Shown here one piece after another: positions 2,434 through 49,770 of a stretch of 64,000 bases of DNA. The notes under the pieces were generated by a model, which saw nothing but the letters and a program-made list of their open reading frames with translations, did no database searches and was not told where the DNA came from. The stretch comes from Octopus vulgaris (Eukaryota), in NCBI GenBank assembly GCA_951406725.2, contig OX597821.1, positions 110,236,001 through 110,300,000 of the forward strand, written 5' to 3'. Both the position numbers and the translations under genes were made by a program. Every line of letters begins with the position of its first letter. The stretch's first letter is position 1.

Positions 2434-2522
<89 letters not shown>

Positions 2523-2529
<7 letters not shown>

Positions 2530-3402
2530 AATAAAATATATGCATATATATAAACATATATGTACGTACCTACCTCTACATGTACATATACACGCATATA
2601 TGTGTACAGGACACCAAAAAGACGTCGAACACATAGAGAGACGAAAAACATAGACACAAACCAAGGAACAAGACAGGCAAAAAAAAGAGATACAGGACAA
2701 TAAGCACAACGAAAAATCCCCTTCTTCAGTCGCTAAAGTTTCATCTACTAAACGTTTCGAAGGATAAAAGCGAGACGTATACTTCGAATGAAAAATTCCT
2801 TCCTGCGAAAAGCAAATCAATTAAAATTCTGAGATCTTTTCGCAGAGGGGTAAAAAAAGCAAGACGGTAACGACAGTACAAACATATAAACAGTAAAAAA
2901 TATATATATAAACAGTAGAAAAATAAATATATAACAGTGAGAGACAGGACAAGGAGAACAAGATAAGAAGGGCTGTTAACGCCAGACGAAAAAAGTATTG
3001 CAAACGCTGGATTATAGTGGACGACGAGAGAGGAAGATGTCGACCAGTGGCCTTAGAAGGCGGGCGAGAAAGGACAGGATAGCAGTACGACGGAAGTAAC
3101 GTCGCAGATGGACGACGGGAATGGGGGAGGAGGAGCAAGAGGAAGAGAGAGAAGAAGGGGAATGGTGCGAGGAGACCATGAAGAACAGTGAGGGGGAGAG
3201 AGAGAGGAAGAGACAAGTTAAGTGAGGGAAAAAAAGACGAAAAAGGGAATGGGAGAGAAAGAAAGAAAGATGCAGAGTCGCGTGAGAGTTAATATCAAGG
3301 CGAACTTGATAAACAGAACAATCTTACTTAATAGGGTGCGTGCGTTTAGTCGTATAATATGTTAATAAAATATATGCATATATATAAACATATATGTACG
3401 TA
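2523..3402 (-). mobile_element. Non-autonomous ribozyme-bearing retroelement (Penelope-like/retrozyme-like, family 1) with 46-bp terminal direct repeat
   Basis: ATATGTTAATAAAATATATGCATATATATAAACATATATGTACGTA occurs at 2523-2568 and 3357-3402. Both ends abut (TA)n. It carries the hammerhead-like motif and is homologous to about 15990-16375 in the opposite orientation. Confidence 0.7.
2718..2850 (-). ncRNA. Putative hammerhead ribozyme with non-canonical pseudoknotted topology (family 1, copy 1)
   Basis: Minus strand: CCCCU-[CUGCGAAAAG..CUUUUCGCAG]-GAAGGA..UUUCAU..ACGU C^UCGCU-UUUA-UCCUUC-GAAACGU..AUGAAA..AGCGA-CUGAAGA-AGGGG. Core CUGANGA, GAAA and GUC are intact. Predicted cleavage is between 2774 and 2773. 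Confidence 0.75.
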
Positions 3403-3414
3403 TATATATATATA

Positions 3415-3679
3415 ACGGGAAGCTTTATGAAAATAGACAAAAGACGAAGGCAGGTGGAAAACAAACGAACAATTGTATTAGTATGGCGCTCAGGAAATAT
3501 AAATAAAACAAGTCTTTAACGTTTCGAGCCTACGCTCTTCAACAGAAAGATACACAGAGAGAAAAAAACACAGAAAGAAGGAGAGAAAAAAATGCGTGCA
3601 GTAACTAACGAACCAACATGGCGATCTGATTTCGGCCAGAAGTCAAAGATCAAACATGAGACGCGAGAGCGAAATTAGG

Positions 3680-5854: not shown

Positions 5855-8423
5855 CCCATTCGTGCTGAAATTTTTCTAGTGAATGAAATTACCTGAAAAT
5901 GCACAGATATTATTATTTTGACCCAAATAACATCTGAAATAAATTTCATTGAAATCCGTTTGATATTTCCTGAAATAATCACTGTCAGTTATAACATACA
6001 TCACGCACTGTGCATATGAATCTTTAATAAGCTTGTTAACTTTGCAATTTACTTATTTAGAGTATAATCAAAGTATTATATCTGACCATAGCTTTACTAT
6101 GAAAATGATTCCTCTTCACATAAATAAGATATCAAGGAAAACAGAAAATTTATTTAGTAAAATATATCCTTTTGAAATGAAACTATTCAGCTTTGCTAAA
6201 CATGATAATTCTTGAAACATTTAGGATGAACTGCTACATCACATTTTTTACATATGAAATGACGTTTCCCAGAGCACTCATTGCATCTCCGTTCATTTGG
6301 AATATATTCAATCCAGTGCTCAACACCATCATACCTTGCATTGTCTTTCAAATTAGATGTGCGTTTTCTTTGTTTTCTTTGAAATTTTGGAGTGCCATAC
6401 TTTTTCATTAGAGTTAGAGACATGTTTTCGATGAAATTGCATAATGTAATTTTGTGCCCTGCTCTATTCATCAAGATGCATGAATTTCGGGTTGCCACAG
6501 ATACAAAATATGACAAAATAGGACACCATTTATTTTGCCACATTAGAATCCTATAGGAACCGATCTTATGACCCAGAAGGTCAGCAAATCCCATATATTT
6601 GTTGTAATTTTGGATGTTTTCAGGCTGTGGAACTGGAACATATTTCTTTTGAGGCCTGTCATAGCGCTCAACCGTGGACATTTTATAGGTTTCAAAGTTC
6701 GATAGCAGAACAACATCGTTATTATCTTTCCATTTCACAGCGACTATATTTGAAGTGGACTTGAAGTCAGCTGCCCCTCTGAGGCGTGCTTTCATTTCAG
6801 TTTTCGTTTTGAAAGGACATCTAGCTGTCTTATTTTCTCTGCAGGTTCTCGATGCACAGATTCCTTTCTCAAAAAGTTTCTCCATCACTTGAATACTTGT
6901 GAAATAATTATCAAAAAATATTTCGAAACCTTTACTGTCTGGTGCTCCTACAGCATCAATGAGATCAAGGACAACGTTCCCACCGAGGCCAAATGCATTT
7001 TCGGTTTCATTGGGACCGTCTTTCTTGCCAGTGTAGATGTCAAAAGCATGTATATTTCCCTGTTGACAATAAAGGACCCAAATTTAGAAACTAAACCGAA
7101 TTGGTTTCCCTTTTATAAATTGTTTGGCATAGGGCTTGCCATAATATGGAGCCATACTTTCGCCAACATAGATGTTCTCCCAAGCCACCATATTCCTTGA
7201 ATTTTCTTTTTGTAAGTGGCCAGGTAGAGGTCTGAGTTTGAATGCACGATCGTCTCCTGAAGCATTGGCATCATCCACTAAATGGATATTTCTTAATATA
7301 CTCTCAAATCTGTCTCACCTCATGCTATTTTGTAAACTTTTTGGAACATTGTCTTCAGATGACCACTGCCTTCTTTTATTAGGAAGTGGACAGTGAGCTG
7401 ACAGAAGCAATCCACCTGAAGAATTCATACAGCTCTGATTTGTATACATTCAGAACTTTACCGTTTTGTACAGCATATCGGTTTGTTTGTTCTACAATGT
7501 CATCCAGTAATTCATCTGTGGAGAACAAACTAAATTGGATAATACTGGATTCGAGCAAGATTTTGCTTCCTCAGATATATCTACAGGCTCATATGAAGTT
7601 GAAACACGATTCGCCGCTTCGTTTTTCTTCCAATCTCTTGTTTTACTGAATTTAGTTTGTTTTAGATTTCCTGTAACTTCTTCAATTTCTTCAGGCACAT
7701 CCTGTTGACAAGAAATTCGTGCGTCAGTTTCCACAAGCCCTCTTTTCAGTCGAACCGAGGAACCTACAGCCTCATCATCTGAAGCACCACTATCGCCATC
7801 GAAGAGTTCTATATTGTGAAGGAGACCAATGTGAACATCGCCTCTGTTGCTCAGCTCTTCCAATAATGCTAGGGCTTCTGTTGTTTTAAGACTGAAAGAA
7901 AAAATTACAATGATATAGAGATGTGTGGACGCAAAATTTATTGTAAATAAAAACCAGACTATTTCAAATAAATCATATTGGCTATTTATAATGCGAAACT
8001 ATATCAACACCTAAAATATTAGGTGAGTTGTTTTATGTCTAAGTTTGCTGCGGATGTCCGTTATAAAAGACAGGGTGTTATATTTTATTTTGTTTACAAC
8101 ATAAATCTCAAATGGTAACAAATTATGCATCTCACCTATGATCATAAAAACACATAAGAGACCACAACAATGCCTACATGATTAAATAATTATAAATGAT
8201 TGGTTCACCATTTACCGCGCGTCCTGCTTGTACTCGCCACGTTGCTCAACTGTGGTTGTTACAAGTTATAGTGTAAGCATTTATTCAAACAGACTGCATG
8301 CACGTTAAGAACATGTTTCATTCTTTGATACAGATCATACACAAATCATAATTTGTATCAAGTATTTGTTTTATACCCTTATAAATTAAGTGTCAGTTTA
8401 ACCGGACGACCGGCATGAATTGA
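5855..8423 (-). mobile_element. piggyBac DNA transposon (PGBD3-like), decayed
   Basis: TTAA at 5851-5854 and 8424-8427. Imperfect TIRs CCCATTCGTGCTG and (rc) TCAATTCATGCCG. Contains a fragmented transposase. Confidence 0.88.
6196..7890 (-). pseudogene. piggyBac transposase pseudogene (frameshifts/stops)
   Basis: Motifs ESMAPYYG..KQFIKGKPIRFSF, WKDNNDVVLLSN, NYNKYMG..DL and the C-terminal cysteine-rich domain RRCNEC..FICKKCDVAVHPKCFKNYH, spread over ORFs 7492-7863, 7084-7278 and 6196-6888. Confidence 0.92.
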
Positions 8424-8963: not shown

Positions 8964-9609
8964 ACTTTCTACCATAGGCACAAGGCCTGAAATTTGGGGG
9001 GCGGGGACTAGTGAAGTACGTCGACCCCGATGCGTAACTGGTACTTAATTCATCGAAGGCGACGAGCTGGCAGAAACGTCAGCACAGCGGCGAAATGCTT
9101 AGCGGTATTTCGTCTGCCGCTACGTTCTGAGTTCAAATTCCGCCGAGGTCGACTTTGCCTTTCAGCCTTTCGGGGTCGATTAAATAAGTACCAGTTACGC
9201 ATTGGAGTCGATATAATCGACTTAATCCGTTTGCCTGTCCTTGTTTGTCCCCTCTATGTTTAGACCCTTGTGGGTAGTAAAGAAATAGATACTTAATTCA
9301 TCGATTCTGAAAGGATAAAAGGCAAAGTCGACCCCGGCGGCATTTGAACTCAGAACATGAAGGCAGACGAAATACCTATTTCTTTACAACCCACAAGGGG
9401 CTAAACACAGAGAAGACAAACAAGGACAGACAGACGGATTAAGTCGACCATATCGACCCCAGTGCGCAACTGGTACTTAATTTATCGACCCCGAAAGGAT
9501 GAAAGGCAAAGTCAACCTCGGCAGCATTTGAACTCAGAATATGAAGGCTGACGAAATACCGCTAAGCATTTCGTCCGGCATGCTAACGATTCTGCCAGCA
9601 CGCCGCCTT
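8964..9609. mobile_element. Nested/tandem tRNA-derived SINEs (family A, OR1/OR2-like)
   Basis: A + copy at 9057-9289 sits inside a - copy, with TSD TACTTAATTCATCGA; a - strand dimer follows. Core GCCTTTCATCCTTTCGGGGTCGATAAATTAAGTACCAG resembles the Meta/MESC SINE domain (from memory). Confidence 0.9.
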
Positions 9610-15769: not shown

Positions 15770-16375
15770 CACACTCCTCCTCATCTCTCTCACAACCGGC
15801 CAAATACTTCCTTTTGCATGCGGCCTTCTAACTGTAAATACACGGCTTTCTTGCGCTCCTTGAATCTCTCTTCGTCTAGGCAAAAGAGGCCATCTTTGGT
15901 TGTTTTCTTGTGTGTTTTTATTTCTTGTATTGTACTTTTATTTTGTATTTTATTTTGTATTTTATTTTTTATTTTATTTTGTAATTTTATTTGTATCGTT
16001 TTTACGTCCTGTTTGTGTCACATTTTGTTCTTTCCTTGTTTTTACCCCTCTGCGAAGTAATTTCCTTTAATTTCTTCGCAGGAAGGGCTAGTTCGACGAG
16101 TCGTGTTCTGTCCTCACCTTCGAAACACGCTGGAGTTGAACTAGGGACAGCTGATGAAGGGGATTTTTCCTTGTGTAGTTTGTCTAGTACTCTGTTTTTT
16201 CTTTGTAAAAAAAGGTTCGTTCCATGCTCGTTTTTACGTTTTCGTTCTCGTTGAGTTCTGCGTCTATTTGTGGTGTCCTGTACTCACGTATATATATTTA
16301 TATATGCATGTATATATACATATAGATGTATGTACGTACATATATGTATGTATGCATATATTTTATTTATTACAC
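15770..16375 (+). mobile_element. Ribozyme-bearing retroelement family 1, copy 2
   Basis: Homologous to the reverse complement of 2523-2860 (GGGGATTTTTC.TTGTG, GGTGTCCTGTAC, GTACGTACATATATG, ATGCATATATTTTATT); 3' end abuts (TA)n. Confidence 0.65.
16045..16162 (+). ncRNA. Putative pseudoknotted hammerhead ribozyme (family 1, copy 2)
   Basis: CCCCU-[CUGCGAAG..CUUCGCAG]-GAAGG-G-CUAGUUCGAC..CGUGU U^CUGUCC-UCA-CCUUC-GAAACACG..GUUGAACUAG-GGACAG-CUGAUGA-AGGGG. Predicted cleavage after 16107. Confidence 0.78.
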
Positions 16376-16433
<58 letters not shown>

Positions 16434-18750: not shown

Positions 18751-18795
<45 letters not shown>

Positions 18796-18847
18796 AATAC
18801 AAAAAATGAACAAGAACGCAACAGGTGACAGCAAGACATTCAGACAG

Positions 18848-18969
18848 TTTCTTTCCTCAGTCGAGTTCCAGATTTCTTTGCAGTTTCATCCGGTTATACT
18901 CGAGACTGCTCCAATCTGGCCAGCCACAAGGTAAATCTAAGCTAAGAGCACTAGATTTCTTGGAAGAAA
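18848..18969 (-). ncRNA. Putative pseudoknotted hammerhead ribozyme (family 2, copy 1), within repeat ~18793-19120
   Basis: Minus strand: UUUCUU-[CCAAG..CUUGU]-GGCUGG-CCAGAUU-GGA-GCAGU C^UCGAGU-AUAA-CCGGAU-GAAACUGC-AAAGA-AAUCUGG-A-ACUCGA-CUGAGGA-AAGAAA. Predicted cleavage between 18904 and 18903. Confidence 0.75.
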
Positions 18970-19199
18970 ACAGAGAATGTATACGAAAACAAAGACGGAA
19001 AAAAGGAGAAATGGTACACAAATACAAATGTAAGCAACATGACATTAACAACAGGTGTCTTTCAACTAAGGACGAATTAAATTAAGCTGGCGTGTGTGAA
19101 AGTGAAGCCTTGCTGCAGGAACAGCGCAGGTGTGGGTGTGTGGTAAGTAGCTTGCTTACCAAGTAACCTGCATACTTCCCATGAGTCTTTGAGAATTTC

Positions 19200-22679: not shown

Positions 22680-22802
22680 TTAGTTTCCTCAGTCAAGCTC
22701 CAGATTATCTTTATAATTTCGGCTGGTTATACTCGAGATTACTCCAACCTGACTAGCCCCAAGGAAAAACTAAGCTAAGAGAACTAGATACCTTAGAAGA
22801 AA
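22680..22802 (-). ncRNA. Putative pseudoknotted hammerhead ribozyme (family 2, copy 2), within repeat ~22563-23050
   Basis: Minus strand: UUUCUU-[CUAAGG..CCUUGG]-GGCUAG-UCAGGUU-GGA-GUAAU C^UCGAGU-AUAA-CCAGCC-GAAAUUAU..AAUCUGG-A-GCUUGA-CUGAGGA. Compensatory and wobble changes relative to copy 1; P0 is decayed. Confidence 0.72.
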
Positions 22803-45124: not shown

Positions 45125-46640
45125 TGATAAGTGGTATGAATGCCAACCGTTATCAATCACAGACAATGATCAACTGACAATCTGTACCAGTGGTTCTCAA
45201 CAAGGGTCCATATAAGATGTTGCTGTTAAAGCTTACGTGTAATAAATTAGTTACCCTAGGGCGGTGAGCTGGCAGAATCGTTAGCACGCCGGGTGAACTG
45301 CTTAGCAGTTTTTCGTTTGTCTTTACGTTCTGAGTTCAAATTCCGCCGAGGTCGACTTTGCCTTTCATCCTTACGATGGCGAGCTGGCAGAAACGTTAGG
45401 ACGCCGGGCGAAGTGCTTAGTGGTATTTCGTCTGCCGTGACGTTCTGAGTTCAAATTCTGCCGAGGTCGACTTTGCCTTTCATCCTTTCGGGGTCGATAA
45501 ATTAAGTACCAGTTACGCAATAGGGTCGATATAATCGACTTAATCCGTTTGTCTGTGCTTGATTGTCCTCGCTGTGTTTAGCCCCTTGTGGGCAATAAAT
45601 AAATAAGAAACGTTAGCATGCTGGGCGAAATGCTTAGCGGTATTTCGTCTGCCGTTACGTTCCGAGTTCAAATTCCGCCGAGGTCGACTTTGCCTTTCAT
45701 CCTTTCGGGGTCGATTAAATAAGTGCCAGTTACGCACTGGGGTCGATATAATCGACTTAATCCGTTTGCCTGTCCTTGTTTGTCCTCTCTGTGTTTAGCC
45801 CCTTGTGGGTAGTAAAGAAATAGGTATTTCGCCTGCCGCTACGTTCTGAGTTTAAATTCCGCCGAGGTCGACTTTGCCTTTCATCCTTTCGGGGTCGATT
45901 AAATAAGTACCAGTTACGCACTGGGGTCGATATAATCGACTTAATCCGTTTGTCTGTTCTTGTTTAGCCCCTTGTGGAAAGTAAAGAAATAGGTATTTCG
46001 TCTTTCTTTACGTTCTGAGTTCAAATTCCTCCGAGGTCGACTTTGCCTTTCATCCTTTCGAAGTCGATAAATTACGTATCAGTTGCGTAATCGACGGGAC
46101 CCCCCACCTCCCCCAAAATTTCGGGCCTTGTGCCTAGAGTAGAAAAGAATAAATTGGTTACGCTTCTACAATTCACAAAATATTCTAATTGTTTTTATAC
46201 AATTTCTAATGATATTTAATTATAAAATTATATTTTTGGAAATACCGAATGGCTGTAGAGGTCCAGCAGTGTAACATAGGAATCAAAGGTGTCCATAGAT
46301 AAAAAAAATGGTTGAGAACTATTGATTTACACAGATAAGAAGTTGTAATATTATCGATTAGCTATCACTGTTTTCCAGAAAGAGACTAAAAAATGGATCT
46401 TCATTGACATAGCTGAACCAGAAGACGAGAACTTTATAAAACCGGAGAAAGCGGAAAGGCATCAAGACCTGGCATAGGGCCTCAAGAGCGAGTGTAATAC
46501 TCATCGAGATTGGGGCACTTGGAACCATCTCAAAGAAGACTGAAACCTAGTGCGAGAAGTTGGAGCTACCAGACATCGTTGGAAGCACATAGTTGGCGGT
46601 CATAGTCGAAACAGCGCATGCGTTGTGAAGAGTGTTTGCG
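45125..46640 (+). mobile_element. R4/Dong RLE fragment containing a hAT-type MITE (~45188-46324), which contains a tandem SINE A array (45259-46150)
   Basis: DKWYECQP before the MITE, WIFIDIAEPED..IEIGALGTISK after it. MITE ends CAGTGGTTCTCAAC / GTTGAGAACTATTG. Array TSD AATAAATT(A/G)GTTAC. Confidence 0.8.
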
Positions 46641-49097: not shown

Positions 49098-49351
49098 CTC
49101 TTGCATAATTTTTATACATATCTTATGTAATTTAGTACACACAAACAATTCTTTATACATAGTACGGTAAGAAGCGGATTGGTAATGAAACAATTGTGAA
49201 GGTGCATGGCTATATAGTTACAGTAATCGATTCATGATCGTAAAGACGTGAGTTCGTTTCCCAGCAGCGCGTTGTATCCTTGAGCAAGATCTTTTATATC
49301 ACGTTGCTCCAGTCCATTCGCTCGGCAGAAAATTAGTAGTGCCTGTAAAAC

Positions 49352-49770
49352 GGCGAGCTGGCAGAAACGTTAGCACGCCGGGCGAAATGCTTAGCGGTAT
49401 TTCGTCTGCCGTTACGTTGTGAATTCAAATTCCGTTGAGGTCGACTTTGCCTTTCATCCTTTTGGGGTCGATAAATTAAGTACCAGTTACGCACTGGGGT
49501 CGAAGTAATCGACTTAATACCTATGTCTGTCCTTGTTTGTTCCCTCTGCGTTTAGCCCCTTGTGGGTAGTGAAGAAATAGGTATTTCGTCAGCAGTTACA
49601 TTCTGAGTTCAAATTCCGCCGAGGTCGACTTTGCCTTTCATCCTTTCAGGGTTGATAAATTAAGTACCAGTTGCGTTACGCACTGGGGTCGATGTAACAG
49701 ACTTAATCCCTTTCTCTGTCCTTGTTTGTCCCCTCTATGTTTAGACCCTTGTGGGCAATAAAGAAATAAG
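49352..49770 (+). mobile_element. SINE A dimer inserted into a family C SINE
   Basis: TSD AGAAAATTAGTAGTGCCTGTA on both sides; the host SINE spans about 49200-50030. Confidence 0.88.

Follow-up and report, generated by a model that had tools for sequence, protein, structure and literature searches.

A candidate hammerhead ribozyme with a re-permuted type SGC layout in abundant retrozymes of Octopus vulgaris

RESULTS AND DISCUSSION

A hammerhead-like motif at four loci

Four loci in the window (the whole stretch of 64,000 nt of Octopus vulgaris DNA analyzed here) carry a motif that is most probably a self-cleaving hammerhead ribozyme, with a re-permuted type SGC layout (IIa-X, block S, block G, stem I-CUGANGA), borne by non-autonomous non-LTR retrozymes. 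Judged by its sequence, the motif is SGC-like in its working, yet its block C is interrupted, and its host is a very abundant group of animal retrozymes. The copies, their helices and the insertions that contain them are as follows.

16045..16162, + strand, copy A ribozyme, clade 1, forms every helix
16045..16049, + strand, 5' strand of P0 (P0a) of copy A, pairs with 16158-16162
16050..16081, + strand, P1 hairpin of copy A, flush with both P0a and IIa
16082..16086, + strand, stem II strand IIa of copy A (from G10.1), displaced to the 5' side of the site, partner strand 16117-16121
16088..16097, + strand, 5' strand of helix X (Xa) of copy A, pairs with 16135-16144
16102..16113, + strand, block S of copy A: stem III strand, triplet GUU, predicted cut 16107^16108, stem I strand Ia
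16117..16129, + strand, block G of copy A: IIb, GAAA (16122-16125), stem III strand
16135..16162, + strand, 3' part of copy A: Xb, Ib (16145-16150), CUGAUGA (16151-16157), P0b (16158-16162)
15772..16383, + strand, family A retrozyme insertion, a 5'-truncated part of a 790-nt monomer with (TA)n tracts on either side
2718..2850, - strand, copy B ribozyme, intact, GUC, predicted cut 2774^2773, CUGAAGA at 2729-2723, all helices form
2518..3402, - strand, family B insertion, one complete 834-nt monomer with a terminal redundancy of ca. 50 nt, flanked by (TA)n on either side
18848..18969, - strand, copy C ribozyme, clade 2, GUC, predicted cut 18904^18903, stem II decayed
18778..19123, - strand, family C insertion with copy C, a truncated part of a 768-nt monomer terminating at (TA)n
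22680..22802, - strand, copy D ribozyme, clade 2, AUC, predicted cut 22737^22736, mismatches in II and P0
22549..23048, - strand, family C insertion with copy D, same family as the insertion of copy C

The coordinates, strands, core motifs and strand order that a sequence-only reading had given for these loci are correct at all four. Its statement that every helix pairs holds for copies A and B and fails for C and D, both of which have faults in stem II. The top of this stem in copy C is a G-U pair followed by a mismatch, while copy D has one mismatch in it and a weak P0 that pairs at only three of five positions when placed flush. Copies C and D are decayed. The stem II pair GGCUGG/CCAGCC had been put together from strands of these two copies, but it is the pair typical of the family, present in intact relatives (loci L032, L034, L039, L047 and others). 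The division into two unrelated families was roughly right, although many more subfamilies exist across the genome: A and B, 72% identical across 251 nt, represent subfamilies of a single clade, C and D belong to one family within a second clade, and a covariance model of clade 1 did not detect clade 2.

On this folding, P0 of copy A is the helix that connects the ribozyme to the remainder of the RNA. P0, P1, X and III form the nested part, which coincides with the minimum-energy fold of copy A; stems I and II are the pseudoknots. The nested helices alone are worth about -9 to -10 kcal/mol. Nested folding gave z values of ca. -2 for copies A, B and C and 0 for D, a weak signal that is expected because two helices are pseudoknots, and we did not count it as support. 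A full descriptor (stems I and III, upstream II, X) matched copies A and B in the window, C and D failing it, and had no match in 6.4 Mb of dinucleotide-shuffled window. It also matched none of 120 viral stretches (among the matches listed for the clade-2 pattern) and none of 117 metagenome stretches (clade-1 pattern), negatives that are little guide to the range of the motif because the search patterns are family-specific.

Covariation and core rules

The identification as a hammerhead, the set of helices and the predicted site are well supported by covariation in both clades, by the NUH rule and by the 5' ends of genomic copies. The clade 1 alignment consisted of 26 diverged genomic copies, i.e., 24 of 29 picked at <90% identity and two from the window. 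In it, 93.5% of the cells are paired, both partners vary in 16 of 27 pairs and the covariation score is 0.49; for the 20 diverged copies of clade 2, the values are 88.0%, 17 of 31 pairs and 0.29, all these counts being of non-independent events, as the copies are related and the structure was drawn on one of them. None of 500 shuffles reached the score in either clade, and registers slid along the alignments were 28 to 51% paired. The helices covary in both clades.

Stem I is paired in 97% of the cells in clade 1 and 94% in clade 2, stem III in 87% and 93%, both with compensatory changes. Stem II, with its upstream strand, reaches 98% and 93%, three of its pairs having compensatory changes in clade 1, and helix X, which joins stems I and II, 92% and 86%, with changes on both sides. 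P0 is 96% paired in clade 1, where its outer pair is C-G in 13 copies and A-U in 10, and three of the four P1 pairs change on both sides in that clade.

The core of the class (CUGANGA, GAAA and NUH) is complete and flanked by stems I, II and III, but CUGANGA and GAAA (and AGGG in clade 1) were imposed by the search patterns and are no evidence in themselves. The triplet was absent from the search anchors, the site being placed via stem pairing alone in 101 copies. Position 16.1 is U in 98 of them and position 17 is other than G in 100; AUC (39), GUC (26), AUA (11), GUA (10) and GUU (9) make up 95 of the 101 triplets. N7 takes all four bases.

The motif does not have the nested three-way junction with cyclic order C-G-S of types I, II and III (Rfam). 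Rfam gave no match at its gathering score for five loci, and, searched on the window at E ≤ 5, no hammerhead among the best 150 of 448 matches, which were microsatellite-driven miRNA matches.

Comparison with type SGC and the splitting of block C

The sequence-only reading had taken the reverse cycle UH-GAAA-CUGANGA as undescribed. It is already known as type SGC, validated in vitro by Eckert et al. (2023, PMC10085705), and since this S-G-C cycle is published, the novelty of the strand order is gone. In that work, the hammerhead is split into blocks C, G and S, and the non-circular order S-G-C is reported. Type SGC (the HRIMA-1 motif and variants; Eckert, Friedrich, Weinberg and Weinberg 2023, PMC10085705) comprises 583 sequences, five of which cleave in vitro. 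Its stems I and II are linked by 3 nt, and their other ends are connected by a helix. According to the accessible text of PMC10085705, none of these RNAs lies in the genome of a known organism save one GCS candidate, the SGC sequences being from metatranscriptomes. The same paper assumes that CUGAnGA and the neighboring paired strands are directly consecutive, so that block C cannot be interrupted, and the descriptors that it gives, CUGAUGAG or CUGAUGAUG, i.e., CUGAUGA(U)G, place stem II immediately after; CUGAUGAUG allows one extra U between A9 and G10.1.

The octopus motif shares with type SGC, as described in PMC10085705, the order of site, GAAA and CUGANGA, the linker of ca. 3 nt between stems I and II, the helix joining these stems (helix X of copy A is its counterpart) and all the core nucleotides. 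Blocks S, G and C follow each other 5' to 3' in both. It departs from that type in that IIa and Xa sit 5' of block S, whereas in SGC they are 3' of CUGANGA, and in having two added helices, P0 and P1, at the opening A9|G10.1. Its block C is therefore not an uninterrupted one with stem II after 0 to 2 extra nucleotides, and the descriptors published in PMC10085705 would miss it, as they require stem II right after CUGANGA. The setting is also different, >20,000 copies in an animal genome against the 583 metatranscriptomic sequences of that paper.

The earlier reading had drawn IIa 5' of the site with P0 and P1 at A9/G10.1, without singling this out, and the pairing counts confirm it. The upstream stem II pairs in 127 of 129 cells in clade 1 and 93 of 100 in clade 2, with compensatory changes. 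Counting Watson-Crick pairs only, the upstream partner (22 to 29 nt 5' of the site) pairs in 121 of 130 and 89 of 100 cells, respectively, the partner right after CUGANGA in 38 of 130 (46 in the register one position along) and 9 of 100, and a flank window of equal length, the control for the upstream partner, gave 48 and 60. The two strands co-vary across subfamilies (GAAGG/CCUUC, GAACG/CGUUC, GAGCA/UGCUC, GGCUG/CAGCC). The bases that follow CUGANGA have another partner, the 5' end of the motif, with which they form P0, and the P1 hairpin lies between P0 and IIa.

These counts bear on the possibility that the motif is an ordinary type SGC ribozyme, whose stem II uses the bases just after CUGANGA (0 to 2 extra nucleotides), the upstream strand, P0 and P1 being incidental or a switch. 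The downstream register shifted by one pairs in 102 of 130 clade-1 cells if G-U is counted, and published SGC descriptors accept an extra U at the same place (CUGAUGAUG, PMC10085705). Yet only 46 of 130 of those shifted pairs are Watson-Crick, against 121 of 130 upstream, and the run of G in clade 1 was imposed by the search pattern. The downstream registers of clade 2 pair in 9 to 29 of 100 cells, against 93 of 100 upstream, and it is the upstream strand, not the downstream one, that changes together with IIb. We consider this explanation highly improbable, and a canonical SGC with downstream stem II was rejected on the pairing counts of both clades.

In the preferred reading, that of a re-permuted SGC hammerhead, the layout is, to judge from these pairings, a circular permutation of SGC, with the ring joined between Xa and stem III and broken open at A9|G10.1. 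Some viroid and satellite hammerheads also have a single additional nucleotide between A9 and G10.1. The opening point would be the very place where type SGC already accepts one extra U (PMC10085705). Block C would thus be split, a feature that appears new relative to Eckert et al. (2023). In clade 1, the junctions A9|P0, P0|P1 and P1|G10.1 are all flush in the alignment. In a putative four-way junction, the A9.G12 pair would stack on G10.1-C11.1 and P0 on P1, so that A9 and G10.1 would hold their usual places though unbonded. P0 is 78% paired in clade 2, where the pair proximal to the junction is U.U or C.U in 11 of 20 copies, so the putative junction is imperfect in some copies.

Abundance and anatomy of the elements

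Two exact core patterns had 8,829 and 13,675 matches across the genome (2.8 Gb), ca. 22,500 in all and a lower bound on the number of copies, against 0 and 66 for reversed controls. They comprise many subfamilies beyond the families of the window. There is one motif per non-coding monomer, many copies are dispersed, and others form head-to-tail arrays with tandem spacings of 699 to 875 nt (and a single one of 1,135). The monomers have 38 to 44% GC and are 65 to 70% pyrimidine on the ribozyme strand. Copies sit in (TA)n, with 3' ends at a few AT-rich points and variable 5' ends, and in 8 of 93 truncated copies an inverted segment of the same copy lies at the 5' junction. Family B is young, as 39 of its top 40 matches are identical across the full 156-nt query and the 40th across 154 nt. 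Such anatomy, absent from the earlier reading, is that of non-LTR retrozymes with Penelope-like hallmarks, which, as far as the sequence can tell, are the carriers of the motif; the type I hammerhead of known retrozymes is replaced in them by the split SGC layout.

Some other repeats were seen alongside. In one locus (L213:440-470), a near-perfect palindrome arises where two retrozyme copies are joined head to head 7 to 10 nt past the predicted cut. A further common repeat, inserted in (TA)n, starts at window positions 3415-3500 (+ strand), head to head with copy B, and also flanks many other copies (L002, L021, L225, L233). The window has in addition a piggyBac-type transposase fragment (6196-7083, - strand; Pfam DDE_Tnp_1_7, E 2e-24) and copies of an abundant SINE-like repeat (9277-9605, 33.5k, 45378-45909, 49351-49679 and 55.1k) that are 85 to 88% alike. 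The genome is very rich in ribozyme-bearing repeats: several more families bear hammerheads whose strand order is the ordinary one (23,704 pattern matches genome-wide, redundancy included, versus 5,481 for the control), e.g., C1:823325, C1:1066669, C1:1583304 and loci L092, L112, L119 and L123.

Penelope-like elements as possible partners

The genome holds intact elements with a reverse transcriptase (RT), a GIY-YIG endonuclease at the C terminus and a CX2-5CxxC linker, i.e., of the Neptune type. One intact family stands out.

L111-L126, L128 and L130 (C2-C17), intact Neptune-type family with an upstream ORF and a 781-aa RT/GIY-YIG frame

Among the 148 GIY-YIG matches listed, 16 lie in that 781-aa frame. 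The family inserts in (TA)n and has a pLTR with CCAAT/CRE/TATA-like repeats, which carries its own minimal type I hammerhead with U3-A8 in place of the C3-G8 pair and a palindromic stem III. The monomers have no clear sequence homology to this pLTR, and the family was rejected as direct parent on both grounds.

Two junctions connect the two kinds of element. In L097 (105-1790), an inverted 5'-truncated retrozyme dimer is fused directly, without (TA)n, to a 5'-truncated Neptune fragment, a single event that has given no family. In L003, a retrozyme and a Neptune coding fragment lie head to head with a short (TA)n between them. This suggests shared machinery, two cases and a common targeting falling short of proof.

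The repeats could instead be the pseudo-LTR of an autonomous Penelope-like element (PLE), e.g., a Naiad, the ribozyme being active but the units not free-standing retrozymes. The Naiad clade is (TA)n-targeting, with no hammerheads detected according to the accessible text of Craig et al. (2021, 10.1101/2021.04.23.441226). Retrozymes are derived from pLTRs by Li et al. (2026, 10.64898/2026.07.22.740005), and PLE insertions often leave terminal pieces alone. Against this stand the head-to-tail arrays of whole non-coding monomers in several families. A translated search with three Neptune proteins against the motif-bearing loci found PLE fragments in just three, in each case separate from the monomer. 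Among the 30 GIY-YIG loci inspected, 29 are of the Neptune type with C-terminal endonuclease, none bears the motif as its own pLTR and none is N-terminal GIY-YIG (Naiad type). We regard a pseudo-LTR origin as quite unlikely and free-standing retrozymes as the better description.

Other fragments deserve mention. At L275:1000-2550, (TA)n tracts join clade-2 retrozymes to both sides of a pyrimidine-rich, decayed Penelope-like RT fragment whose end resembles a minimal hammerhead, and a related fragment is present in L284; the one in L275 is a second candidate partner because its strand bias resembles that of the monomers. The GIY-YIG exon at L098:1500-1650 is unlike the Penelope ones and presumably belongs to a host SLX1-type nuclease.

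5' ends of genomic copies and transcript data

If the RNA is cut, a reverse transcriptase working on the 3' product must halt at or shortly after the site. We located the 5' ends of copies with two sets of anchors, mostly within the first 30 to 44 Mb of contig C1; the two sets overlap. With anchors in the core (GAAA..CUGANGA; 2 of 169 dropped as chance matches), 53 of 167 copies start at -4..+13, at least two of them internal deletions, and 31 at -100..-5, while two more starts, mis-extended through (TA)n, belong at the site. Starts at -4..-1 mostly show microhomology with the flank.

Since the core anchor is blind to the downstream rate, the count was repeated with anchors ca. 105 to 140 nt 3' of the site; a first downstream control, swamped by microsatellite matches, was discarded. 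This set, from two older families, had 36 and 44 anchors near the C1 start, partly the same loci, with one 3' tandem unit left out per family. Of its 80 copies, 20 start at -4..+13, 12 at +14..+40, 8 at -99..-5 and 8 beyond +40; another 25 extend upstream of -100, and 7, judged by eye to be internal deletions, were excluded. From the flanking rate, 1.6 starts would be expected in the site window, against the 20 seen (Poisson p about 1e-15); relative to the rate at +14..+40, p is 0.008. The peak lies at +3..+12, with mode +6 and not 0; its upstream edge is sharp, and downstream it tails off to +40. Family B has no pile-up: its 59 ends spread over the whole monomer, with 4 at -4..+13 (p 0.2), a pattern that fits copying from circles or slow cleavage, and also an inactive motif. 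The ends of truncated copies in the older families suggest that the ribozyme cuts itself in the cell.

Internal deletions in or just after the ribozyme are frequent (L231, L267, L361, L362, L374, L375, L391). Several remove ca. 60 nt between short repeats and may be template jumps across the folded motif.

At least half of the family B words occur in the contigs of 19 of the 24 public runs listed, all from organism A. Contigs of X2 and X8, RNA by our guess, cover the whole monomer and an 833-nt back-joint, which is also present in a DNA run. There is no consistent drop at the site in the guessed-RNA contigs, and those of X2 and X7 run across it. A dip at the site in X8 (depth 2.5 versus 97 and 7 nearby) is absent from X2 and X7 and was not counted.

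A fold that is real and selected but does not cut or has ceased to cut, e.g., a protein-binding or RT-pausing structure, would turn the peak of 5' ends into a footprint of RT stalling. The offset of ca. 6 nt with its downstream tail, the flat distribution of family B and the contigs that cross the site in X2 and X7 all agree with this, as does the cleavage of just one of nine Xenopus retrozyme dimers in Li et al. (2026, 10.64898/2026.07.22.740005). What speaks for catalysis is that the triplet varies yet obeys NUH and that N7 varies, as catalysis requires, and that the upstream edge is sharp (8 ends in 2 x 95 nt upstream versus 20 in 2 x 18 nt). Besides, no helix would be left to stall the enzyme at +6, because Ib, Xb, III and IIb should already be displaced by then. 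We thus judge a non-cutting fold unlikely and retain the self-cleaving hammerhead.

Proposed mode of propagation

Transcription through an array would give multimers, cut after NUH at each unit into monomers with a 5'-OH and a 2',3'-cyclic phosphate. Circularization of the monomer might be the work of RtcB, which has been proposed for type I retrozymes, or of the ribozyme. Stem I would stay inside the 3' product, while P0, II, X and III would hold both products together; as these helices (ca. 20 to 27 bp) clamp the products, re-ligation may be favored. A Penelope-like RT/GIY-YIG endonuclease, most likely of the Neptune type, would then prime at AT-rich points 100 to 300 nt downstream of the site, by target-primed reverse transcription at (TA)n. 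On linear cut RNA, the enzyme would run off at or just after the site; on a circle, it would pass the site and yield full copies and tandem arrays.

A bolder reading, which we hold to be possible but rather doubtful, combines a fourth hammerhead opening (a new helix at A9/G10.1, with block C as two blocks and more permutations) with a monomer that ligates itself without a protein ligase and a motif widespread in invertebrate PLEs that are considered ribozyme-free, such as Naiads. The motif may be overlooked in invertebrate PLEs because all standard descriptors miss it.

Relation to known retrozymes and meaning of the finding

Published animal non-LTR retrozymes have type I hammerheads only, as reported in the accessible text of Cervera and de la Peña (2020, PMC7229834) and Li, Clavereau and Pollet (2026, 10.64898/2026.07.22.740005). 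They were searched for with type I descriptors, and their monomers are mostly of 150 to 450 nt (51 to 972 in Li et al. 2026). The octopus elements resemble those described there in their non-coding, low-GC tandem monomers with one hammerhead each, both dispersed and arrayed, and in the presence of PLEs in the genome. They differ in their monomers of 700 to 875 nt, 65 to 70% pyrimidine, and in the split SGC motif. With PLEs, as described in 10.1101/2021.04.23.441226, they share the (TA)n target bias and the tandem and inverted 5'-truncated insertions; unlike PLEs, the monomers encode neither RT nor endonuclease. The same source reports minimal type I hammerheads in the pLTRs of the Neptune clade, whereas the octopus monomers carry another motif.

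Tolerance of the core to insertions is common to this motif and to the hammerheads of Perreault et al. (2011, PMC3088659), where the core insertions listed are of 1 to 2 nt only; here, two whole helices are inserted. The literature consulted, which includes few subscription papers, had no description of the split layout or of a cephalopod hammerhead retrozyme, and Eckert et al. (2023) were alone on type SGC. No hammerhead with a helix at A9/G10.1 appears in the accessible text of PMC3088659, PMC6765202, PMC6155905, PMC10162972, PMC13725137 and 10.64898/2026.09.16.752053. A precedent for an extra helix alone is possible in Weinberg 2015, cited in PMC13725137 for hammerheads with "additional helices" apart from permutations.

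If true, an animal genome would for the first time have yielded a non-circularly permuted hammerhead family, with ca. 40 times as many members as all the published SGC sequences. The finding would run against the explicit assumption that CUGANGA is inseparable from its stem II strand, so the permutation space would grow, and current ribozyme scans of animal genomes would undercount. At the A9/G10.1 metal site, a natural four-way junction would be a ready insertion point for engineered switches. The footprint of 5' ends would be a rare case of germ-line cleavage seen in genomic data, and the octopus elements would provide SGC-like ribozymes with a biological setting, the processing of retrozymes, and with a deep natural alignment.
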